From Phycisphaerales bacterium (GTDB taxonomy: Bacteria > Planctomycetota > Phycisphaerae > Phycisphaerales > UBA1924), in NCBI GenBank assembly GCA_029260315.1, contig JAJDDM010000072.1, positions 1,357 through 65,356 on the forward strand: DNA of 64,000 bases. Direction: 5' to 3'. The number at the start of each line of letters is the position of its first letter. Position 1 is the first letter of the stretch. Shown piece after piece: positions 1 to 62,267 of the stretch. The position numbers and the translations under genes are program-made. Below the pieces are notes generated by a model. That model had not been told where the DNA came from. It ran no database searches and worked only from the letters and a program-made list of their open reading frames with translations.

Positions 1-2368
1 TCGCCTCGATCCGCGCGATCTCCTCGGCGCTTACCGGCTTGTTGTGCGAGAAATCGAACCGCAGCCGATCCGGCGCGACCAGCGACCCCTTCTGCTCCAC
101 CCCCTCGCCCAGCACGTCGCGCAGCGCGAAGTTCATCACATGCGTCATCGTGTGGTTCGCGCGGATCGGCTCCCGCCGATCGCGATCGACATGCACCTCG
201 GCGCGATCTCCCACGCGGACGTGCCCGTCGGTCACATGCCCCACATGCAGCACATACCCGCCGATCGCGTCCGCGCGCCGGACGCGAAAACTCCCGGCGC
301 CGTCGCCCGGATCGTTGCTCTCGTGGGACACGACGAAGATCCGCCCGGTGTCGCTCTCCTGCCCGCCGCTCTCGGCGTAGAAGCATGTGTGGTCGAGGAT
401 CATCGCGATCGGATGCCCCGCGGCCCCCGTTCCCGTGTGCACCGAGTTATCCCAGTCCCGCCCGGTCCAGATCGCCCGCACCGTCGCGATCTTCGCGGTC
501 CGCTCGTACTTCGAGCTGTCGTCGGTCGGGGGGATGCCGCGCTGCCGCAGGCTCTCCACCGCCTCGGCGGTCATCGTCAGGGCTCGGTCACTCCCGGCCT
601 TGCCCCCGGCGCGGCTTCGCTCGCGCTGCTCGGCCATGCAACGCTCGAAGCCTTCAATGTCGACGGTCAAGCCACGCTCCTCGGCCATGAGTTGGGTGAG
701 GTCTGGAGGAAAGCCATAAGTGTCATAGAGTTTGAATACGTCTTCACCCAGCATCCTTGGCACAGATTCGAAGTAGTGTTCGATTAGGCGTGGCGTTACT
801 TCGGCGTAACTAAACTGCAAGAAGGGCTCATCGTGGCCTCTCTCGAAGATAGTGAAGGTTGAATGTTCATCAATGCCCATTGCGATCGGTCTTCGGTCAT
901 CCTGGTCCAAGACGCGCTCGATTTGAGCAGGCATGGTCTCGCGAGTTAGTGCCAACAAGTACTTGTTCTCGGTATCATCCTTGAGCGTGAACTGACGAAA
1001 AACGGCGTCGCCGGCATATGACGCGAAAACCCGCAGGCCCCGATCCAACGTCCTCCCAAAGCTCTCCTCCTCCTCCAGCACCACCTCGCGCACAAACTTC
1101 TCCCGCTTGCGCAGCTCCGCAAACGCCTCCCCCATCTGCTCGACAATCACCGGCACCAGCCCGGCGAGAAACCCCGTCTCCGCCCCCAGCATCTGACGCC
1201 CGTACCGCACCGCTCGGCGCAGCACTCGCCGCAGCACATACCCCCGCCCCTCATTGCTCGGCACCGCCCCATCGGCGATCGCAAACGTCAGCGTCCGCGC
1301 ATGGTCGGCGATCACCCGATACGCCGTGTCCACCTGCCCCTCGTCCTCTTCCCCAAGCTTCCCCGCGTACGCTCGCGCCCCCGTCGCCTCCTGGATCGCG
1401 TCGAAGATCGGCGTGAATAGATCCGTGTCGTAGTTCGAGAGCTTGTTCTGCAAGATGCTGGTCAGTCGCTCCAGCCCCATCCCCGTATCCACATGCCTCG
1501 CCGGCAGCGGCTTGAGCTGGGTAGATCGGCTCTCCGAGCCGATTCCCGAGGCGTCCTGGGTAGGTCGGCTCTCCGAGCCGACATCGGGGGCGACGATCTG
1601 GGTAGATCGGCTCTCCGAGCCGACATCGGGGTCGTCCGAGGTGCCTTGCGTGGGAGCTTTGCTCGTCGTCGTGTCGGCTCGGAGACCCGACCTACCCATT
1701 TGCCGATCGAACTGGATGAACACCAGATTCCAGACTTCGAGCACGTTGGGGTCGTCCTGGTTGACAAGCCCCGCCGCGTCGCGCCCGCCGATTCTGTCAT
1801 AGTGAATCTCGCTGCAAGGCCCGCACGGCCCGGTCTCGCCCATCTCCCAGAAGTTGTCCTTCATATTCCCCGCCAAGACCCGCGCCGCCGGCAGGTACTT
1901 CAACCAGATCTCCCGCGCCTCCTCATCCGCCCCCAACTCCTGCCCCGCATCGCCCTCGAAATACGTCGCGTACAGCCGATCCTCGGGGATCCCGCACTCC
2001 TCGGTCAGAAACTCCCACGCCCAGCCGATCGCCTCTTCCTTGAAGTAATCGCCGATCGACCAGTTCCCCAGCATCTCGAAGAACGTGTGGTGATAGGTGT
2101 CCTTGCCGACGTCCTCCAGATCGTTGTGCTTGCCCCCGGCACGGATGCACTTCTGGCTGTTCACCGCCCGGGCCAGTCCTTCCAGCGGCGACCCCGCCGA
2201 AACCTGCCCCAGAAACGCCGGCTTGAACTGGTTCATCCCCGCGTTGGTGAACAGCAGCGTCGGATCATCGTGCGGCACCACCGGGCTCGACGGATAGAAC
2301 CGATGCCCGTGCCTGGCGACGAAGAAGTCGATGAACCGCTTGCGGATCTCGCTGCTGGTCGGGGGCAT
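1..2368 (-). CDS. alaS: alanine--tRNA ligase (AlaRS); the 3' end runs off the left edge of the window
   Basis: Absent from the ORF track because there is no stop in the window. Manual minus-strand translation from ATG 2368-2366 gives [89 protein letters not shown] and LYDTYGFP. These are class II AlaRS signature blocks. The frame stays open to position 1. Confidence 0.93.
1519..1697. mobile_element. REP/REPIN-like array, family D: three direct and one inverted 25-nt GTAG-hairpin units, in-frame inside alaS
   Basis: Direct copies of GGGTAG(A/G)TCGGCTCTCCGAGCCGA(C/T) lie at 1519-1543, 1558-1582 and 1600-1624. The reverse complement lies at 1673-1697. Each unit has a 7-bp stem and 3-nt loop (TCGGCTC TCC GAGCCGA) preceded by GTAG. 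Confidence 0.85.
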
Positions 2369-2410
2369 GGGGGCTCCTGGAGTCATCCTCCCGGATGGTA
2401 GCGTTCTCAC

Positions 2411-2440
2411 AAAACAGAGCCGCGAGCGCAAGCTCGCGAC
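2411..2440. repeat. REP family A copy (left flank of the RayT-like gene)
   Basis: The sequence is AAAACAGAGCCGCGAGCGCAAGCTCGCGAC, with palindrome CGCGAGC-GCAA-GCTCGCG at 2421-2438. It is the reverse complement of the copy at 3097-3127. Confidence 0.85.
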
Positions 2441-2485
2441 GAGACATGCAAGTACCCGCGTCGTCCCACCTTGCCGGTAGCCCGG

Positions 2486-3019
2486 TCAGGATCCCCCTCG
2501 ATGAAACGGCAACCTCTGCCGCTCGCCGACGTACCGGACAGCCCCGCGCACCGCCTCCCCATTCCACAGATACCGCGTGCTTCCGTGCCGAGCCCAGAGC
2601 CTGGTCCCCTCCGTCAGCGCTTCTTTCCGAAGCCTGCGCGTCGCCCACGACTTGAGCTGCCGCATGATCTCCTCGGGCGACTCTTCCGGGGCCGTCAGCA
2701 CGACATGGACGTGCGTGCTCATGGCGTCAGGGGCGAGAAGCGTCCAGTTGCGGATCTTCGCGTGGTCGGCGATCGACCGCCTGACGATGCGCTGGGCGGG
2801 CGCTGTCAGGCGGAACGGAGGCGAGGTCATGCGTCGGCGCGCGGCGTTCTCGCGCAGTTCGTCCTTGGGGTAGTACGGGGTTGCGAACTCGTTGTGTGTG
2901 GAATCCACCGACCCGCGAGCATCGCCATGGAGGCGGTGACCATAAGTGGACCAAGTCAGGAAGTAGGCGAGCGGGCGGCGCTTCGATTCTCTGGTTCGAA
3001 TCGCCGGGTCACCTTCCAT
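2486..3019 (-). CDS. REP-associated tyrosine transposase-like protein (RayT / IS200-IS605 Y1 HUH family), 177 aa
   Basis: This is the 3' 534 nt of ORF 2486..4840(-), starting at ATG 3019-3017 (MEGDPAIRTRESKRRPLAYFLTWSTYGHRLHGD). It has an HUH motif in STHVHVVL and a C-terminal GSTRYLW tyrosine region. It is bracketed by inverted REP-A copies. Confidence 0.8.
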   Translation of the reverse strand: MEGDPAIRTRESKRRPLAYFLTWSTYGHRLHGDARGSVDSTHNEFATPYYPKDELRENAARRRMTSPPFRLTAPAQRIVRRSIADHAKIRNWTLLAPDAMSTHVHVVLTAPEESPEEIMRQLKSWATRRLRKEALTEGTRLWARHGSTRYLWNGEAVRGAVRYVGERQRLPFHRGGS

Positions 3020-3096
3020 GGTCGGCAGGATACCGTGCAAGTGGAAGAGTTGGCATTGTTTGCCGAGAACGGTACGGGCTGCCTGCCGGACGACCA

Positions 3097-3127
3097 ATCG
3101 CGAGCTTGCGCTCGCGGCTCCGTTTTG
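3097..3127. repeat. REP family A copy (right flank of the RayT-like gene)
   Basis: The sequence is ATCGCGAGCTTGCGCTCGCGGCTCCGTTTTG, with palindrome CGCGAGC-TTGC-GCTCGCG at 3099-3116. Confidence 0.85.
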
Positions 3128-3165
3128 GGGTGCGCTCCAATCCGACCGCCGCCGATAGCCGATAA

Positions 3166-3200
3166 CCCATCGCGAGCTTGTGCCCGCGCCTCCGCGTTCT
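3166..3200. repeat. Degenerate REP family A copy
   Basis: CCCATCGCGAGCTTGTGCCCGCGCCTCCGCGTTCT has the same head as the rlmN copy (ACCCATCGCGAGC). The stem carries a mismatch. Confidence 0.5.
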
Positions 3201-3220: not shown

Positions 3221-4636
3221 ATGGCCCACTACGACCTCCTCGTCATCGGCTCCGGACCCGCCGGCTACAAAGCCGCCATCCAGGCCGCCAAGCTCGGCCG
3301 CCGCGTCTGCGTCGTCGAAAAGGAACGCGTCGTCGGCGGGGCCGCCATCAACACCGGCACCATCCCCTCCAAGGCCCTTCGCGAGGCCATCCTGACCCTC
3401 GCCGAGCGACCCGTCGTCATGCCCCGCTTCGACGACTTTACCGCCGCCCGCAACGCCGTGTTCTCCAACCTCCGCGGCTGCTGCTCCAAGATCATCGCCA
3501 GCGAGGTCAACATCGTCCGCGAGCACTTCGCGCGCAACGGCGTCGACCTCCGCGAGGGCTGCGCCCGCTTCGTTGATGACAAGACCATCGACGTCGGCTG
3601 CCAGGACTCCCACGTCAAACTCACCGCCGACAAAGTCGTCATCGCCGTCGGCACCACCCCGGCCCGCCCCGAGGGCGTCGCGTTCGACGACCGCACGATC
3701 ATCACCTCCGACGAGATCGTCGATCTCCAGTTCCTGCCCCACTCGATGATCGTCGTCGGTGGTGGGGTCATCGGCACCGAGTACGCCAGCATGCTCAGCG
3801 CCCTGGGCGTCAAGGTCACGCTCATCGAAGGACGCGACCGCCTGCTCGACTTCGTCGACAGCGAGATCACCGAGGCTCTGCAATACCACCTCCGCCAGAA
3901 CGGCATGACTCTCCGCCTGGGAGAAAAGGTCACTAGGATCGAGGCCATCGACGCCCCGCCCGCCGCGCGCACCGCCGACAACCGCATGGCCCAGGCCACG
4001 CTCGATTCCGGCAAGACCCTGCGCGCCGACTGCCTGCTCTACGCCATCGGCCGCCAGGGCGCGACCGACGCGCTCGACCTCCAGAACGCGGGCCTTTCCG
4101 CCGACAACCGCGGCCGCATCAAGGTCAACGACAACTACCAGACCGAGGCCAGCCACATCTACGCCGTGGGCGATGTCATCGGCTTCCCCGCCCTCGCCAG
4201 CACCTCCATGGAACAGGGCCGCCAGGCGGCGTGCCACATGTTCGGCGAGTCCTGCCACAAGATGGACGAACTCCTGCCCTACGGCATATACGCCGTGCCC
4301 GAGATCTCCATGGTCGGCTGGACCGAGCAGCGCCTCACCGACGAGGGCATCCCCTACGAGTCCGGCATCGCCCAGTACAAAGAGATCGCGAGGGGCCAGC
4401 TCCTCGGCGACGAGATCGGCATGCTCAAGATCCTCGTCCACCAGGAGTCCCGACACATTCTCGGCGTCCACGCCATCGGCACCGGCGCGACCGAGCTCAT
4501 CCACATCGGCCAGACCGCCCTCGCCTTCCACGCCACGATCGACTACTTCGTCGACACCGTCTTCAACTACCCGACCCTGGCCGAGTGCTACAAGGTCGCC
4601 GCCTACAACGCCGTCAACAAACTCCTCGGCGTGTGA
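3221..4636 (+). CDS. sthA: Si-specific NAD(P)+ transhydrogenase (soluble pyridine nucleotide transhydrogenase), 471 aa
   Basis: Internal ATG of ORF 2471..4636 gives MAHYDLLVIGSGPAGYKAAIQAAKLGRRVCVVEK, an FAD Rossmann fold. GGAAINTGTIPSK lacks the CxxxxC redox disulfide of LpdA, as expected for SthA. The C-terminal dimerisation domain is present. Confidence 0.85.
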   Translation: MAHYDLLVIGSGPAGYKAAIQAAKLGRRVCVVEKERVVGGAAINTGTIPSKALREAILTLAERPVVMPRFDDFTAARNAVFSNLRGCCSKIIASEVNIVREHFARNGVDLREGCARFVDDKTIDVGCQDSHVKLTADKVVIAVGTTPARPEGVAFDDRTIITSDEIVDLQFLPHSMIVVGGGVIGTEYASMLSALGVKVTLIEGRDRLLDFVDSEITEALQYHLRQNGMTLRLGEKVTRIEAIDAPPAARTADNRMAQATLDSGKTLRADCLLYAIGRQGATDALDLQNAGLSADNRGRIKVNDNYQTEASHIYAVGDVIGFPALASTSMEQGRQAACHMFGESCHKMDELLPYGIYAVPEISMVGWTEQRLTDEGIPYESGIAQYKEIARGQLLGDEIGMLKILVHQESRHILGVHAIGTGATELIHIGQTALAFHATIDYFVDTVFNYPTLAECYKVAAYNAVNKLLGV

Positions 4637-4978
4637 CGGGTCACCACGAGAAAACACAGAGAGCACAGAGGGCACAGAGGGCACAGAGGGCACAGAGGGC
4701 ACAGAGGGCACAGAGGGCACAGAGGGCACAGAGGGCACAGAGGGCACAGAGGGCACAGAGGGCACAGAGGGCACAGAGGAAGAATATTCACCACGGAGTT
4801 GCGCGGAGTTCAAGGTGCGGAATCGGATCGTCCTCGACACCGTTCCTTCCGACTCCGTGTCACTCCGTGAAACTCCGTGGTGAACTCCTTGCTTTTCTCT
4901 CGTGCCCTCTGCGCCCTCTTGTGGTTCATTCCTGCTCTTCGCTTTTCGCTTTTCACTTTTCGTTTTCTACCCTCCCCC
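4637..4978. repeat. Nested imperfect palindrome filling the sthA-holB spacer (repeat family G)
   Basis: TTCACCACGGAGT at 4787-4799 mirrors ACTCCGTGGTGAA at 4872-4884. The CACAGAGGG units on the left mirror CCCTCTG units at 4905-4920. Four (G/A)CTTTTC heptamers lie at 4941-4967. Confidence 0.8.
4655..4780. repeat. Tandem repeat, 14 x 9 bp (CACAGAGGG)
   Basis: Counted directly: the units start at 4655 and recur every 9 nt to 4772. The first unit is CACAGAGAG and the last is CACAGAGGA. The repeat is open in all frames (the TEGTEG, QRAQRA and PSVPSV artefact ORFs). Confidence 0.97.
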
Positions 4979-6118
4979 GTGGCCAAGCGCACCAAGAAAC
5001 CCAAGCCCCCCCGCGAGATCCCCCTCGAAGCCACCCCCTACAAGCCCTACGAGCACGCGCCCCACCTCGCCGACATCGTCGCCCAGGACCGCGCCATCGC
5101 GATCCTCGACGGCGCAATCAACTCCGCCCGCATCCATCACGCCTGGATCTTCCAGGGCCCCGAGGGCGTCGGCAAGTTCTCCACCGCCCTCGCCCTCGCT
5201 CGCGTCCTGCTCGATCCCGGCTCCACGCCGGACCTCGCCGCCCAGATCCGACCCGACCCCGACAGCCAGATCCAGCGCCTGATCGACGCCGGCGCACACC
5301 CCGACCTGCACGTCATCCGCCGAACGCTGTCGGTCTACAGCCGCAAGCCCCAGGTCCGCATCGCCAAGCAGGCCAATATCCCCCTGGAGGTCGTCCGCGA
5401 GTTCCTGCTCGAACTCGCGGCCCGCACCCGCGTGCTTTCGGGCGACAGCCTCAGCCACAAGGTCCTGATCGTCGACGAGGCCCACCACCTGGCCTCCCAG
5501 GGCCAGAACGCGATGCTCAAGACCCTCGAAGAGCCGCCCGCGGGCACGGTCATCATCCTCATCACCAGCCGCGAGTCACGTCTGGTCACCACCGTCCGCA
5601 GCCGCTGCCAGCGCGTCGCCTTCGCCCCGCTCAATGAGCCCTCCATGCGCCGCGTCCTCGGCGCCCGCGAGATCGAGCCCGACCCCTGGCTCCTGGAGAT
5701 GGCCGACGGCTCCCCGGGCGAGTACCTCCGCATGTCCGCCCTCGGCGTCGCCCAGTGGCAGGACACCCTCGAGCCCATGCTCGCCGATCTCGCCCGCAAT
5801 CGCTATCCCGCCGCCTTCGGCTCGGCCGCCGCCGCCATGGTCGAAGCCGCCGCCAAGGCCATGGTCGAGGGCGACCCCCGCGCAAGCAAGGACGCCGCGA
5901 ATCGTGAGGCCATCGCACTGCTGATCCGCATCATCGCCAGGCGTGCCCGCGCCCACATGCTCGCCGATCCAGAGAGCCCCTGGTCGGAAGTCCCCGAAGC
6001 GTTGTCCACGATCGAGACGCTGATCGCTCAGAACGTCCCGATCCTCTTCGCCGCCGACCGCCTCGCTCTGGCGATCCACGACGCTCTCCAGGGCGAGCCC
6101 GCCGGTGCCGTGGTCTAA
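4979..6118 (+). CDS. holB: DNA polymerase III subunit delta-prime
   Basis: ORF 4877..6118 contains HAWIFQGPEGVGKFSTALALARVLL (a degenerate P-loop), LIVDEAHHL, NAMLKTLEEPP and RSRCQ. The start is set at in-frame GTG 4979, because the upstream part is the T-rich repeat. The start is uncertain. Confidence 0.8.
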   Translation: MAKRTKKPKPPREIPLEATPYKPYEHAPHLADIVAQDRAIAILDGAINSARIHHAWIFQGPEGVGKFSTALALARVLLDPGSTPDLAAQIRPDPDSQIQRLIDAGAHPDLHVIRRTLSVYSRKPQVRIAKQANIPLEVVREFLLELAARTRVLSGDSLSHKVLIVDEAHHLASQGQNAMLKTLEEPPAGTVIILITSRESRLVTTVRSRCQRVAFAPLNEPSMRRVLGAREIEPDPWLLEMADGSPGEYLRMSALGVAQWQDTLEPMLADLARNRYPAAFGSAAAAMVEAAAKAMVEGDPRASKDAANREAIALLIRIIARRARAHMLADPESPWSEVPEALSTIETLIAQNVPILFAADRLALAIHDALQGEPAGAVV

Positions 6119-6216
6119 GCGAGTCTTCGAGCGCAGGCCACGCGATTGCACGCTTGACGTCGCTTCCGCTGTCGAGTCCAAAACGAATAGCCGTTCGGAG
6201 CACCGACCATGGCACC
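6104..6216. mobile_element. MITE-like element, family C, copy 1
   Basis: GGTGCCGTGGTCTAAGCGAGTCTTCGAGCGCAGGCCACGC is nearly identical to 11173-11212 and to the reverse complement of 62194-62233. The right end CCATGGCACC approximates the inverted terminus. It overlaps the last holB codons and stop. Confidence 0.7.
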
Positions 6217-11168: not shown

Positions 11169-11172
11169 AATG

Positions 11173-11265
11173 GGTGCCGTGGCCTAAGCGAGTCTTCGAG
11201 CGCAGGCCACGCCCTTGCACACTCGACGTGGCATTCGTCGCAGAGCCTCCTCATACCACGGCACC
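11173..11265. mobile_element. MITE-like element, family C, copy 2 (compact, 93 bp)
   Basis: The termini GGTGCCGTGGCCT and ATACCACGGCACC are inverted. An inner hairpin GCCACG...CGTGGC is present. It starts 4 nt after the stop of the upstream gene. Confidence 0.75.
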
Positions 11266-11287
11266 ATCACGCCGGGATCGACCAGAC

Positions 11288-31915: not shown

Positions 31916-32114
31916 CTTCGCCCGGAGGGCGCACTCGCGTTGCCAGGGACTTCAGTCCCTGGACGGCGGCATTCGCTCATTCTCGCCCGGAGGGCGGACG
32001 CGCGGCTCGAAACATGGCGACTGTCTCGTCCGCCCTCCGGGCGGCAGAGATCACTGAAGACTCCCTCCAGGGACTGAAGTCCCTGGCAACGAGCGCGCGC
32101 CCTACCGGGCGAAG
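31916..32114. repeat. Nested composite palindrome (repeat family H) between convergent genes
   Basis: Outer arms 31916-31962 and 32067-32114 are reverse complements and include CCAGGGAC-ttca-GTCCCTGG. Inner arms are CGCCCGGAGGGCGGACG at 31984-32000 and its complement at 32027-32043. Confidence 0.85.
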
Positions 32115-37559: not shown

Positions 37560-38699
37560 ATGCGGATTCTGCTTGCTAATCCCCGGGGCTTCTGTGCGGG
37601 CGTGCAGATGGCGATCGACGTCGTCTCGCAGGTCGTCGACTTGTTCGAGGGCGAGACGATCTACGTCTACCACGAGATCGTGCATAATCGCCATGTGGTC
37701 AGACGATTTCGGGATTCGGGGGTCGTCTTCGTCGAGGACATTGGGGAGATTCCCGAGGGCTCGGTCGTCGTCTTCAGCGCCCACGGCGTGAGCCCGGCGG
37801 TGCGTGCCAAAGCCTCGGCGAGGGAGCTGCGGGCGATCGACGCGACCTGCCCTTTGGTCACGAAGGTCCACGCCGAGGCGATTCGCTACGCCAAGCGAGG
37901 CGATCAGATTCTGCTCGTCGGGCACGCCGAGCATCAGGAAGTGGTCGGCACCCGCGGCGAGGCGCCGGACGCGATCCAGATCGTCGAGTCGCCCGAGGGC
38001 ATCCCCAATCTCACGATCCGCGACCCCGAGAAGCTCGTGTATCTCACCCAGACGACCCTCAGCACCGACGACGCGGCGGTCATCATCGACGCGTTGCGCG
38101 AAGCATTCCCGAATATTAAGAGTCCTCCGAGCGAGGATATCTGCTATGCGACGACGAACCGCCAGCACGCGGTGCGGCGGCTCGCGCCCGAGGCAGACCT
38201 GACGCTGGTGGTAGGGTCGAAGAACTCGTCGAACTCGGTGCGGCTGACGGAGATCAGTGAGAATGTCGGGACGCCCGCGCGACTCATCGACGACGCCTCA
38301 GACTTGGATTGGAACTGGTTTGAGGATGTGTCCCGTGCCACCGACCGTGGCTCTGCACGGTTAGTGTCGGATGTCAAGAAACATGCAGATAAAGCACCAA
38401 CCGCTCAAAGCAGCGGTCGGTGGCACGGGATGACGGTGCTCGTGACCGCCGGCGCCAGCGCGCCCGAAGACCTGGTCGCGGGCGTCTGTCGGGCGCTGCT
38501 GGAACGCCTCGGCGGCACCATCGAGCAACGAGAGGTCTTCAGCGAGGACGTCGAGTTCAATCTGCCCGCGGCGTTGCGCAAGGAGATGGGCCGGCGGGGG
38601 TTGACGCCCGAGCCGGCCCGGATCGGCACGCCGAGGATCACGCGCGAGCTGTACGGCGGCGTGCCGCTGACGGTGAGCTGTCGAGCGGGACCGGAATAG
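37560..38699 (+). CDS. ispH: 4-hydroxy-3-methylbut-2-enyl diphosphate reductase
   Basis: MRILLANPRGFCAGV, SAHGVSP, DATCPLVTKVH, LLVGHAEHQEV, VGSKNSSNS and VTAGASAPE are present. It contains a 34-codon insertion (see the mobile element at 38329-38432). Confidence 0.92.
   Translation: MRILLANPRGFCAGVQMAIDVVSQVVDLFEGETIYVYHEIVHNRHVVRRFRDSGVVFVEDIGEIPEGSVVVFSAHGVSPAVRAKASARELRAIDATCPLVTKVHAEAIRYAKRGDQILLVGHAEHQEVVGTRGEAPDAIQIVESPEGIPNLTIRDPEKLVYLTQTTLSTDDAAVIIDALREAFPNIKSPPSEDICYATTNRQHAVRRLAPEADLTLVVGSKNSSNSVRLTEISENVGTPARLIDDASDLDWNWFEDVSRATDRGSARLVSDVKKHADKAPTAQSSGRWHGMTVLVTAGASAPEDLVAGVCRALLERLGGTIEQREVFSEDVEFNLPAALRKEMGRRGLTPEPARIGTPRITRELYGGVPLTVSCRAGPE
38329..38432. mobile_element. MITE-like element (family E) inserted in-frame in ispH: 100 bp with perfect 17-bp terminal inverted repeats, flanked by a TG/TG direct duplication
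   Basis: TCCCGTGCCACCGACCG at 38331-38347 is the exact reverse complement of 38414-38430. TG lies at 38329-38330 and at 38431-38432. The centre is AT-richer. Confidence 0.85.
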
Positions 38700-39698: not shown

Positions 39699-41045
39699 AT
39701 GAACCACCCCGCCAGCCACATCTTCGCTTTCACGCCGGATTCGCTCGTTGAATGGTGCGGGGATCGCGGCATGGCGGCGTACCGCGCCCGCCAAATCCTC
39801 GGGTGGGTCTATCAGCGCGGCGTGATCGATCCGGACGCGATGTCCAACCTCGCCAAGCGGGACCGTGAAGTGCTCGCCAACGAGATGACGTTCATTTCCG
39901 GCGACATCCTGAGCCATCAGGCGGCGACCGACGGGACGCGCAAGATGCTCGTGGAATGGAGAGACGAGTCAGACCCACGGAGCCGCGAGCGCAAGCTCGC
40001 GATGGGTCATCCAATCGCCGGCTCGCTTCCGATTCTGCAAGGCTCCTCCGACGGAGGCGATCCAACGCGCCAGACCGAGTGCGTGATGATCCCCGCCGAG
40101 CCGCACGGGCGGGACGCCCGTGCCACCGGGGCGAAAGAAACTCGCGCGGACGAATCGCGCATCCGTCGCACCGCCTGCATCTCCAGCCAGGTCGGCTGCC
40201 CCGTCGGCTGCAAGTTCTGTGCATCCGGCCTCGGCGGGCTCGATGGGAACCTCTCCGCAGGTCGCATCGTCGAGCAGGTCTGGCTGCTGGACCAACTCGT
40301 GAAGGGAAATCTGGTTGAGGGTAGATCGACTCTCCGAGCCGATGCGAGGATTGAGGGTAGATCGGCTCTCCGAGCCGATGCGATGGATGAGCCAGATCAG
40401 AGAGATTCGACAGCAACCCAAGACCAATCGGCTCGGAGAGCCGATCTACCCAGGATCACCAACATCGTCTTCATGGGCATGGGCGAGCCCCTGGCCAACT
40501 TCCAGAGCGTCGTCCACGCGGTCCGCACGATCGCGGCGGATTGGGGCATGGGCATCGGTGCCCGCCGCATCACCATCTCGACGGTGGGTTTGCCCAAGGC
40601 GATCGAAAAACTCGCCGAGCAACTCGAGCTGCCGGTGACGCTGGCGCTGAGCCTTCACGCGCCCAACGACGAGCTTCGTCGGGAGCTGATTCCGTGGGCG
40701 GAGTACACGACGATCGATGAGCTGTTGCGGGCCTGCCGGGCGTGGTTCGACAAGGCCGGGCGGGAGATCACGCTGGAGTACATTCTTCTTGGCGGCGTGA
40801 ACGACCAGGCCGAGCACGCGGGGCAGTTGGCGGGCGTCGCGAAAAGCCTGCGGGCGAACGTCAACCTGATCCGGTACAACGAGGTGAGTGGGTTGCCGTA
40901 TGCGCGGCCGACCCACGCGGATGTGCGCCGGTTCCAGGAGATCCTGCGCGAGCGGGGGGTGAACGCGCACATCCGGACGAGCCGGGGACGGGATATCGCC
41001 GCGGCGTGCGGGCAGTTGCGGCATGAGACCGCAGGGGCGAGATAG
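39699..41045 (+). CDS. rlmN: 23S rRNA (adenine2503-C2)-methyltransferase, radical SAM, 448 aa (about 100 aa longer than usual)
   Basis: Internal ATG 39699 of ORF 39471..41045. YRARQILGWVY, SSQVGCPVGCKFCASG (CxxxCxxC), NIVFMGMGEPL, ISTVG, LALSLHAP, EYILLGGVND, NLIRYN and CGQL are present. Confidence 0.92.
   Translation: MNHPASHIFAFTPDSLVEWCGDRGMAAYRARQILGWVYQRGVIDPDAMSNLAKRDREVLANEMTFISGDILSHQAATDGTRKMLVEWRDESDPRSRERKLAMGHPIAGSLPILQGSSDGGDPTRQTECVMIPAEPHGRDARATGAKETRADESRIRRTACISSQVGCPVGCKFCASGLGGLDGNLSAGRIVEQVWLLDQLVKGNLVEGRSTLRADARIEGRSALRADAMDEPDQRDSTATQDQSARRADLPRITNIVFMGMGEPLANFQSVVHAVRTIAADWGMGIGARRITISTVGLPKAIEKLAEQLELPVTLALSLHAPNDELRRELIPWAEYTTIDELLRACRAWFDKAGREITLEYILLGGVNDQAEHAGQLAGVAKSLRANVNLIRYNEVSGLPYARPTHADVRRFQEILRERGVNAHIRTSRGRDIAAACGQLRHETAGAR
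39969..40073. repeat. In-frame insertion 1 in rlmN, containing a REP family A copy
   Basis: ACGGAGCCGCGAGCGCAAGCTCGCGATGGGT, with the palindrome at 39984-40001, matches the RayT-flanking repeats. It encodes SDPRSRERKLAMGHPIAGSLPILQGSSDGGDPTRQ. Confidence 0.8.
40101..40163. repeat. In-frame insertion 2 in rlmN, containing a family B hairpin
   Basis: CACGGGCG-gga-CGCCCGTG at 40104-40122 is followed by CCACC, as in 54338-54361. It encodes PHGRDARATGAKETRADESRI. Confidence 0.75.
40319..40451. mobile_element. In-frame insertion 3 in rlmN: REP/REPIN-like family D (two direct and one inverted unit)
   Basis: GGGTAGATCG(A/G)CTCTCCGAGCCGAT lies at 40319-40343 and 40355-40379. The reverse complement lies at 40427-40451. 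Confidence 0.88.
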
Positions 41046-41057
41046 CGGGCAAGGGCC

Positions 41058-41222
41058 AAAACGGAGCCGCGTGCGCAAGCACGCGAGAGATCGCCCGGGG
41101 TCCATGGGGCGTCGGTTCTTGCGAGCGATTGCAAGTCTGAACGACTTGAGACCCTTGACGCTCCCTCGCGAGCTGGCGCTCGCGGCTCCGTTTGTGCGGA
41201 ACGCGCTCGCGGCTCCGGAGGC
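41058..41222. repeat. Cluster of REP family A copies between rlmN and hrpA
   Basis: 41058-41088 (stem CGCGTGC/GCACGCG), 41165-41194 (CGCGAGC-tggc-GCTCGCG followed by GCTCCGTTTG) and a half copy at 41203-41222. Confidence 0.8.
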
Positions 41223-54271: not shown

Positions 54272-54392
54272 GTCCTGTTTGACGGATCGGTGGAACGGGC
54301 GTCTCGCCCGTTCGTATCGTGGATTATCTCCAACACGCACGGGCGAGACGCCCGTGCCACCGCTGTCTTGTGATCCGTCAAACAGAACCTAG
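54268..54392. mobile_element. 125-bp palindromic element (family B core) between convergent genes
   Basis: The arms are CTAGGTCCTGTTTGACGGATC...GGTGGAACGGGCGTCTCGCCCGT and the reverse complement. CTAG lies at both ends. The element overlaps both stop codons. Confidence 0.8.
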
Positions 54393-60087: not shown

Positions 60088-60192
60088 ATTCTCACCGCGG
60101 AGACACGGAGACACGGAGAGGAACAATGCATTGACTCCGTGACTCCGTGGTGAATCCCTGCCCGATTCCTCTCTGTGCCCTCTGTGGTGAAT
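60088..60192. repeat. Repeat family G, second (unexpanded) copy
   Basis: CACCGCGGAGACACGGAGACACGGAG ... GACTCCGTGACTCCGTGGTGAA ... CTCTGTGCCCTCTGTGGTGAAT has the same core as 4787-4925. Confidence 0.8.
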
Positions 60193-62058: not shown

Positions 62059-62090
62059 GGCAAGAGCCCGGAGTCGCGTGCCGATCCGGT

Positions 62091-62233
62091 GGTGCCGTGG
62101 TCTGAGGAGGCTTTGCGACAAATGGCCACGCGCACGCCCCCGAAGACGACAATCCGTCGCTCGCGCCAAGACTTGACAGCGGTTGGCAACTCGGCGTGGC
62201 CTTCGCTCGAAGACTCGCTCAGACCACGGCACC
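62091..62233. mobile_element. MITE-like element, family C, copy 3 (143 bp, inverted relative to copies 1 and 2)
   Basis: The ends are GGTGCCGTGGTCTGAGGAGGCTTTGCGAC and GGCGTGGCCTTCGCTCGAAGACTCGCTCAGACCACGGCACC. The ends match the reverse complements of the copy 2 ends. Confidence 0.8.
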
Positions 62234-62267
62234 CCTCGGCGAACGCTACGCGCCCGCTGAATTTGCG

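Follow-up and report, generated by a model that had tools for sequence, protein, structure and literature searches.

Copies of a GTAG-headed palindromic repeat within the alaS reading frame of a Phycisphaerales bacterium

Introduction

Di Nocera, De Gregorio & Rocco (2013, BMC Genomics 14:522, PMC3733652) defined two superfamilies of repetitive extragenic palindromic (REP) sequences, GTAG and CGTC, from over 80 species, with Rhodopirellula and Planctomyces among the hosts. Despite their name, some of these repeats lie inside genes, uvrA and tRNA synthetase genes among them, and some clusters encode 43–82 residues. Few of the intragenic GTAG REPs were found in Planctomycetes, and the largest number in Opitutus terrae, a member of the Planctomycetes–Verrucomicrobia–Chlamydiae (PVC) group, whose GTAG-19 family encodes the peptides GTGVPPV and HGRHARAT (PMC3733652). 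Here we describe a family of GTAG-headed palindromes, called family A below, in a 64,000-nucleotide stretch of a Phycisphaerales genome (assembly GCA_029260315.1, contig JAJDDM010000072.1, positions 1,357 to 65,356; hereafter "the window"). The window holds seven copies in two clusters, both within coding sequence: one in alaS, which encodes alanine–tRNA ligase (AlaRS), and one in rlmN.

Family A has much in common with the GTAG superfamily: a 5' GTAG tag, a stem of 6–9 bp, occurrence as singlets, dimers and clusters, in-frame intragenic copies, and an associated REP-associated tyrosine transposase, or RAYT (the "REPtron"; PMC3733652). The O. terrae peptides named above also match a third palindrome family of the window. 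However, the stem sequence and peptides of family A are absent from the supplementary tables of that paper, no Phycisphaerae were analysed in it, and the intragenic share of family A (approximately 25%, mostly core housekeeping enzymes) looks higher than that of the mostly intergenic families. Intragenic GTAG REPs were already known, and family A is a new family of that kind. A preliminary description of the alaS block, made from the sequence, was aware of nothing like it in Planctomycetota. That claim needs narrowing, as GTAG REPs have been reported in the two genera named above, but we found no paper linking REPs with Phycisphaerae in the literature searched.

The preliminary description also likened the block to the Rickettsia palindromic elements (RPEs; Ogata et al. 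2000/2002, as given in PMC3733652), which are in-frame palindromes in apparently functional genes, typically at surface positions. The likeness holds for in-frame insertion into otherwise intact genes, which is what both alaS and rlmN show, but not for sequence family: RPE-4 and RPE-6 are CGTC-tagged and have been equated with CGTC REPs (PMC3733652), and RPE-1 is 100–150 bp long, whereas family A is of the GTAG type, 25 nt long and has a different stem. The hosts differ too, that of the RPEs being a reduced intracellular alphaproteobacterium, and so, probably, does the mobilising enzyme, which for family A has been identified as a RAYT.

Two further systems are worth comparing. REPINs (REP doublets forming hairpins) and their RAYTs (Bertels & Rainey 2011, PMC3116915; PMC3337134) share with family A the inverted doublet, a RAYT flanked by REPs, a family common to related genomes and signs of vertical persistence; the alaS and rlmN clusters differ in their spacers of 47–48 nt, in the tandem amplification of one arm and in their intragenic location, and the RAYT of two relatives is embedded in leuS. 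Enterobacterial bacterial interspersed mosaic elements (BIMEs) are likewise REP arrays, alternating or direct, with short linkers, but BIMEs are extragenic and have defined linker motifs, whereas the alaS array lies in a coding frame and its periods are multiples of three.

We consider it very probable that the alaS block is a cluster of GTAG-type REPs that was inserted into a turn of the enzyme, was amplified in tandem and is now read through as tolerated selfish or neutral DNA. In a little-studied phylum, an essential enzyme would then have taken mobile non-coding DNA (four copies, 57 residues) into its catalytic core.

The repeat unit

The motif GGGTAGRTCGGCTCTCCGAGCCGAY has seven matches in the window versus 0.00 expected from 100 dinucleotide-preserving shuffles (Table 1). 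All four copies that the preliminary description placed in alaS, three direct and one inverted, were located, the inverted one with a single mismatch. The unit consists of a free GGGTAG head followed by a hairpin with a 3-nt loop and an 8-bp stem (−8.2 to −8.9 kcal/mol when folded as single-stranded DNA, with a z score of about −3.5). Head and loop are as first described, but the stem had been given as 7 bp; it is one pair longer, because the R/Y positions of the motif form an eighth stem pair. These stem-base positions covary: among the fetched copies listed, 129 have G..C, 29 have A..T and 19 have another combination. The (G)GTAG tag stands at the 5' end of the stem in 7/7 window copies and in nearly all copies in the fetched loci.

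GTAG-type REPs are imperfect palindromes of 20–40 bp that form a stem-loop, carry the GTAG tetranucleotide at one end and are extragenic. Family A has the structure and the tag, but both of its window clusters lie within genes; this does not exclude it from the class, because intragenic exceptions are documented (PMC3733652). Rfam, run at its gathering thresholds, matched nothing in the window beyond two tRNAs, and nothing at the repeats.

A check of the reading frames agreed with the earlier statement that the unit is open in five of six frames, the sole closed one being that which reads GG-TAG. In alaS the three direct copies repeat in tandem, each as a REP with its spacer, at a period of 39/42 nt; for the two in rlmN the period is 36 nt.

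Table 1. Coordinates of the genes and repeats discussed, numbered from the first nucleotide of the window
Feature	Position	Strand	Remarks
alaS, alanine–tRNA ligase, eukaryote-like	1..2386	−	Start at 2386; runs past window start
Inserted block in alaS	1517–1699	−	Codons 230–290
Family-A REP copy 1	1519–1543	+	GGGTAGATCGGCTCTCCGAGCCGAT; 0 mismatches; antisense to alaS; read IGSESRST
Family-A REP copy 2	1558–1582	+	0 mismatches; G..C variant; read VGSESRPT
Family-A REP copy 3	1600–1624	+	0 mismatches; inner arm of inverted pair; read VGSESRST
Family-A REP copy 4	1673–1697	−	1 mismatch weakening stem; inverted relative to copies 1–3; sense orientation to alaS; read GRSGLRAD
Family-B hairpin	2417–2439		GAGCCGCGAGC-GCAA-GCTCGCGA; between transposase stop and alaS start
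Y1 (IS200-like) transposase gene	2489..3019	−	Directly upstream of alaS
Two family-B hairpins	3098..3197		Copies at 3098–3123 and 3161–3197; other side of transposase gene
rlmN coding sequence	39699..41045	+	
Family-B copy in rlmN	39977–40014		Read SRERKLAMG
Third palindrome in rlmN	40104–40126		CACGGGCGGGACGCCCGTGCCAC; read PHGRDARATG
Family-A cluster in rlmN	40319..40451	+	In frame; two direct copies and one inverted
Family-A copy in rlmN	40319	+	One mismatch
Family-A copy in rlmN	40355	+	
Family-A copy in rlmN	40427	−	

The insert in AlaRS

The alaS open reading frame (ORF) continues for at least 795 codons. Within it the block, which begins MGRSGLRAD after its N-terminal neighbour FIQFDRQ, is in frame and free of stops, as had been described, but the gain of 60 codons first reported becomes a net 57 residues when orthologues are taken as the reference. 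From FxR to DTGMG there are 14 residues in 106 of the 113 AlaRS homologues in which both of these flanking motifs could be located, versus 71 in the window enzyme. The nearest relatives (58–65% identity), which come from Planctomycetota and Phycisphaerales metagenome-assembled genomes (MAGs), have the 14-residue form, so the orthologue alignment that the preliminary description proposed as a check shows an insertion relative to orthologues. Human cytoplasmic AlaRS (4XEM) aligns to residues 10–230 and 291–454 of the query, with three residues opposite 60. A metagenome scan for the AlaRS junction FIQ(F/Y)(D/N)R followed by a REP gave 0 matches.

The enzyme had at first been compared with E. coli-type AlaRS; it is instead of the eukaryote-like type, its match to 4XEM (E 3e-165) being far stronger than that to E. 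coli AlaRS (3HXU, E 7e-102). Plant, fungal and fish AlaRS (50–58% identity) are intermixed with those of Phycisphaerales among its top matches.

An AlphaFold2 model built on a 40-sequence alignment has a mean predicted local distance difference test (pLDDT) score of 82.8. Residues 234–285 score below 50, have no secondary structure and sit between two confident strands (215–230 and 289–304), so the structure model, which had also been suggested as a check, shows the insert as a disordered turn. On this model, the block would lengthen a surface turn of the catalytic core by about 57 residues that are hydrophilic, disordered and mostly of the kinds Ser, Thr, Gly and Asp. Two other Phycisphaerales AlaRS (P0039 and P0047) have a different insert in this turn, EYPAEGAAALLQWDGTAEAERGRLAFPSRTAIENKFRKL, which is conserved, non-repetitive and about 34 residues long. 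Because it sits at exactly the same place, the turn appears to tolerate insertions repeatedly.

GC content at codon positions 1/2/3 is 59/66/75% in the insert, against 61/42/86% and 67/44/81% in the alaS sequence flanking it. By this measure, and above all at the second position (66% vs 42–44%), the insert is unlike long-evolved coding sequence.

Could the block instead be a mark of decay, the window alaS being an inactive pseudogene and a second, intact alaS doing the work? The length of the open frame, the retention of every column that is invariant in the 40-sequence alignment, the normal third-position GC content on both sides of the insert and the presence of the same kind of insert in many single-copy essential genes of relatives make this extremely unlikely.

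Family A across genomes

To place the window copies in context, one genome per species was scanned for the 23-nt core of family A; the family counts given here and in the next section rest on the matches listed. The core was found at no fewer than 111 loci in at least about 28 species genomes, mostly of Phycisphaerales and Phycisphaerae, and when three mismatches are allowed there are at least 196 copies. The dispersed GTAG-headed palindromic family postulated from the window alone is therefore real. Other hosts are some Sumerlaeia, one Neisseria isolate and one Solirubrobacterales MAG. Related genomes can have many loci each: the SJ456 isolate and MAG_AAO_H10.069 each have at least ten 8-kb blocks with family A.

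The copies are arranged as singlets, inverted doublets and direct tandem arrays. In the inverted doublets the GTAG heads point outward in 46 cases and the opposite way in two. Spacers are 13–17 nt in 17/17 Neisseria pairs and 10–17 nt in 11 Planctomycetota pairs, and the remaining Planctomycetota doublets have spacers of 25–96 nt. Dispersal, doublets and arrays together are the anatomy of a GTAG-type REP family.

Each window cluster contains one inverted pair (copies 3 and 4 in alaS; the copies at 40355 and 40427 in rlmN), and in both the two inverted REPs can be taken as one unit, as in a REPIN. The preliminary description read the alaS pair in this way, which is only partly borne out: the two REPs are inverted, but the 48-nt spacer is far from the modal 13–17 nt. 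Compared by eye and unaligned, the alaS and rlmN spacers (47–48 nt) show no evident similarity.

The arrays also bear on the idea that the block is a low-complexity protein repeat which arose by slippage within alaS and has nothing to do with mobile DNA. Slippage or unequal exchange did contribute to growth, as the three direct copies form a 39/42-nt tandem array, but an identical unit is also present between genes, within other genes and in other phyla, and it is found inverted and read in other frames. As an account of where the block came from, slippage is already refuted and we give it next to no credence; it holds only for the amplification of the array.

Neisseria sp. HSC-16F19, a betaproteobacterium, carries the exact 23-nt core many times, in classical doublets with spacers of 13–17 nt, and the exact core is also present in two Sumerlaeia MAGs (loci L006, L017, L020, L023, L030, L031, L034, L037, L039, L059, L084, L093, L095, L097, L098 and L110 for the two groups). 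Such sharing across phyla points to horizontal RAYT/REP transfer or to strong convergence.

Insertions in other genes

The rlmN cluster, already assigned to the same family in the preliminary description, has three matched copies and is absent from the closest RlmN relatives. These are 72% identical to the window protein, which is also the figure for its top database match (65% for AlaRS). The minimal loop at this site in the RlmN family is about six residues (RLEGVGRISN). In one orthologue (P0133) this loop holds a family-A doublet that is independent of the window cluster, is read in different frames and was confirmed at the DNA level in locus L112. We also considered whether the spacer of the rlmN pair is the ancestral loop (MDEPDQ vs MEQDPN in P0121), but the similarity is too weak to decide.

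To recognise insertions in the genes of relatives, we required a stop-free frame spanning the cluster, with GC content at codon positions ordered GC3 > GC1 > GC2 on both sides over at least 150 nt. By this test, 24 of the 96 clusters in Planctomycetota loci are inside genes, versus 0/19 in Neisseria. The intragenic share of about 25% is approximate, because two or more of the positives are likely to be false (L016 and L090, with arginine-rich ORFs such as a wrong frame would give) and true cases were missed, among them the REP of L077 and the left-hand one of L015.

Pfam confirmed 20/20 of the host ORFs submitted to it, each insert having domain matches to its left and right. The confirmed hosts are RimO (two inserts), an aminotransferase class I/II enzyme, LeuRS, kynureninase, an MqnC/CofH-like radical SAM enzyme (two orthologues), Hsp70, UvrA, sigma-54, topoisomerase VI-B, MnmA, MnmG, GluRS, MeaB, CarB, HisRS, aldehyde dehydrogenase (two inserts), MetH, TopA and UbiD. 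Insertion into housekeeping genes is thus recurrent, and every one of the five open frames is in use: GRSALRAD is read 18 times, VGSESRPT 16, SARRADLP 11, VGRLSEPT 6 and RLGEPTYP 4, with the TAG frame used 0 times. Tandem periods within genes are 39, 42, 36 and 36 nt, all multiples of three; array periods outside confirmed genes are 25, 29, 31, 35 and 58 nt, most of which are not.

The two MqnC-like orthologues (L033:1134-2774 and L063:2235-3863), from two species, have a family-A doublet at the same site, and in L033 one arm of it has decayed (GRPSEPT vs DRLSEPT). The shared site and the decayed arm suggest that an intragenic REP can be passed on and later decay until it is an ordinary loop. 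In-frame insertion of family A is general in Phycisphaerae/Phycisphaerales and unusually frequent, and the same loops are hit repeatedly.

Persistence of this kind raises the question of whether the insert is adaptive, with the REP loop recruited as a protein-binding or regulatory loop of AlaRS, or the RNA/DNA hairpins recruited to affect alaS translation or mRNA stability. The MqnC-like inserts that persist at one site across species, together with the conserved 34-residue insert that P0039 and P0047 keep at the AlaRS turn, indicate that such additions can be retained. However, the closest AlaRS relatives do without an insert, and the copies are near-identical, which suggests youth. A function at the peptide level is also hard to reconcile with the same DNA being read in enzymes unrelated to one another, in either orientation and in each of the five frames. 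The low pLDDT of the insert, its lack of predicted secondary structure and its non-coding-like codon-position composition point the same way, and we regard recruitment as improbable. We interpret the alaS block as DNA that the gene tolerates, either selfish or neutral, and not as a designed domain.

The same comparisons speak to assembly error. Tandem repeats of 25–42 nt are hard to count with short reads, and the source may be an uncultured genome, so the array or its copy number could in principle come from short-read mis-assembly across a high-copy repeat. That is very unlikely here: both flanks are colinear alaS in the same frame, similar in-frame clusters occur in many independent assemblies from different studies, and every array period within genes is a multiple of three, so that the frame would be kept at any copy number.

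Intragenic REPs have practical consequences. Alignments that include them become inflated and fragmented, and in MAGs they may pass for novel domains or for frameshifts. They also mark insertion-tolerant loops, which is of use in protein engineering.

A family-A RAYT inside leuS

A full-length RAYT flanked by two inverted family-A REPs is present at locus L015, from a Planctomycetaceae-labelled MAG (REP (+) at 5437, RAYT at 5630–6031, REP (−) at 6126). It matches NCBIfam REP_Tyr_transpos over profile positions 4–145 of 146 (75.4 bits, E 4e-21), its motifs NHVH, WQ and YIARNP fit those of class 2 TnpA-REP proteins (PMC6006769), and database relatives of the segment are named "REP element-mobilizing transposase RayT". 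Tepidisphaera sp. RI_211 (L077) has a 57%-identical homologue adjoining a family-A REP. A cognate RAYT flanked by the same REPs, which is typical of GTAG-type families, is therefore found for family A, in relatives only, and strengthens the view of family A as part of a REP/RAYT system.

In both relatives the RAYT lies in the leuS reading frame, with no stop codon (L015:4373-7999 (+); L077:1-2700, frame 3). It separates the catalytic core of LeuRS from the CP1 editing domain, and RVFTTRPDT follows shortly after it. In L015 the combined ORF is unbroken over 1209 codons, and the RAYT segment is surrounded by matches to tRNA-synt_1, the LeuRS editing domain and the anticodon-binding domain. The HUH and Y-x3-NP motifs of the embedded RAYT are intact. 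Between L015 and L077 the RAYT parts are 57–59% identical and the LeuRS parts 60–66%, and this similar divergence is compatible with long co-inheritance.

All proteins retrieved with the leuS-embedded RAYT as query were stand-alone RAYTs, at ≤45% identity, which confirms the family, and a metagenome scan for a REP followed by the LeuRS motif FTTRPDT gave 0 matches. We found no report of a RAYT inside leuS in the literature searched; unexpectedly long Y1 proteins have been discarded as fusions or annotation errors (PMC6006769).

As a tentative proposal, which has somewhat less than an even chance of being right, family A in Phycisphaerae may be driven by the leuS-embedded RAYT, whose REP-RAYT-REP arrangement is colinear in the two genomes; the system would be anchored in an essential gene, inherited vertically and continually seeding translated hairpins into the loops of core enzymes, with the alaS array as a young example. 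If so, REPs would be a major source of lineage-specific protein loops in Phycisphaerales. If the RAYT in leuS is real and expressed, it would also represent a new way for a domesticated transposase to secure its inheritance and expression.

Origin of the alaS block

We envisage the following series of events. A RAYT, i.e., a tyrosine transposase of the HUH/Y1 type, would mobilise the GTAG hairpin as single-stranded DNA. A REP cluster would then have landed in, or grown within, the codons of a short turn linking two beta strands in the class II catalytic core of AlaRS, and one arm would have been amplified locally by tandem duplication of the 39/42-nt REP-plus-spacer unit. Such a cluster would be retained in coding sequence only with an open frame, a length that is a multiple of three and a tolerant surface turn. 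The block is probably read straight through, because five of the six frames of the unit lack a stop and because lengths that are multiples of three have survived in an essential gene; the product would be an AlaRS with an extra disordered loop and not a broken enzyme. Arrival of the alaS copy by means of a RAYT, straight read-through translation and near-neutrality of the insert are the parts of this account that we infer.

Several points weigh against this account. No family-A RAYT lies within the 64-kb window. The transposase that does, the Y1 gene adjacent to alaS, has family-B flanks and shares only 19% identity with the family-A RAYT. The L015 RAYT itself, at 75.4 bits, scores just below the NCBIfam curated cut-off of 80. 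The 48-nt spacer of the alaS inverted pair is atypical against the modal 13–17 nt, which makes the pair no more than a candidate for the unit that moved. Finally, the region is rich in REPs, and short-read assemblers can miscount tandem copies in such regions, MAGs included.

Other palindromes and repeats in the window

The Y1 gene upstream of alaS matches Pfam PF01797 (Y1_Tnp) at 30.2 bits (cut-off 23) and NCBIfam REP_Tyr_transpos at 31.3 bits, which is under the cut-off of 80. Its THVHVV (HVH) and YVGERQ motifs fit the NHVH and Y-x4-Q motifs of class 3 Y1/TnpA-REP proteins, a class described as mainly in Planctomycetes (PMC6006769). Inverted hairpins of a second repeat family, family B, stand on either side of the gene, and positions 3098–3127 are 97% complementary to 2410–2439, so window positions 2410–3197 appear from their sequence to be a REPtron-like unit of family B. 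As a mobiliser of the alaS repeat, this transposase was rejected. With family-B flanks and so little identity to the family-A RAYT, to which it is unrelated, it provides no evidence on how the alaS array moved.

The window rlmN alone carries three palindrome families (Table 1), and further family-B copies lie just downstream of it (41059–41217). The third palindrome also occurs as an intergenic inverted doublet at 54290–54360, and in relatives it is translated as GTGVPPVS / HGRDARAT in CarB (L087) and MnmA (L052). As these are the same peptides as those of O. terrae GTAG-19, the third palindrome may be a REP family common to the PVC group. In six RlmN orthologues from other Phycisphaerales (P0123, P0135, P0150, P0156, P0162 and P0163) the same two loops hold inserts with the paired peptides ATERRSDEG and PSVAPSLRRS, which have the look of a further palindromic repeat family read from its two strands.

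The window is unusually rich in palindromic and dispersed repeats. At 4655–4780, downstream of a gene ending near 4636, the 9-nt sequence CACAGAGGG is repeated perfectly in tandem about 14 times. The 13-mer TTCACCACGGAGT is found at 4787, 4872 (inverted) and 60142, with the short CTCTGTGCCCTCTGTG at 60171 and related motifs spanning approximately 60142–60186. A repeat of 40–65 nt, GGTGCCGTGGTCTAAGCGAGTCTTCGAGCGCAGGCCACGC, has three copies (6104–6168, 11172–11266 and 62090–62234), and there are long inverted repeats at 31921/32063 (31919–32108) and 38331/38395 (38331–38430).

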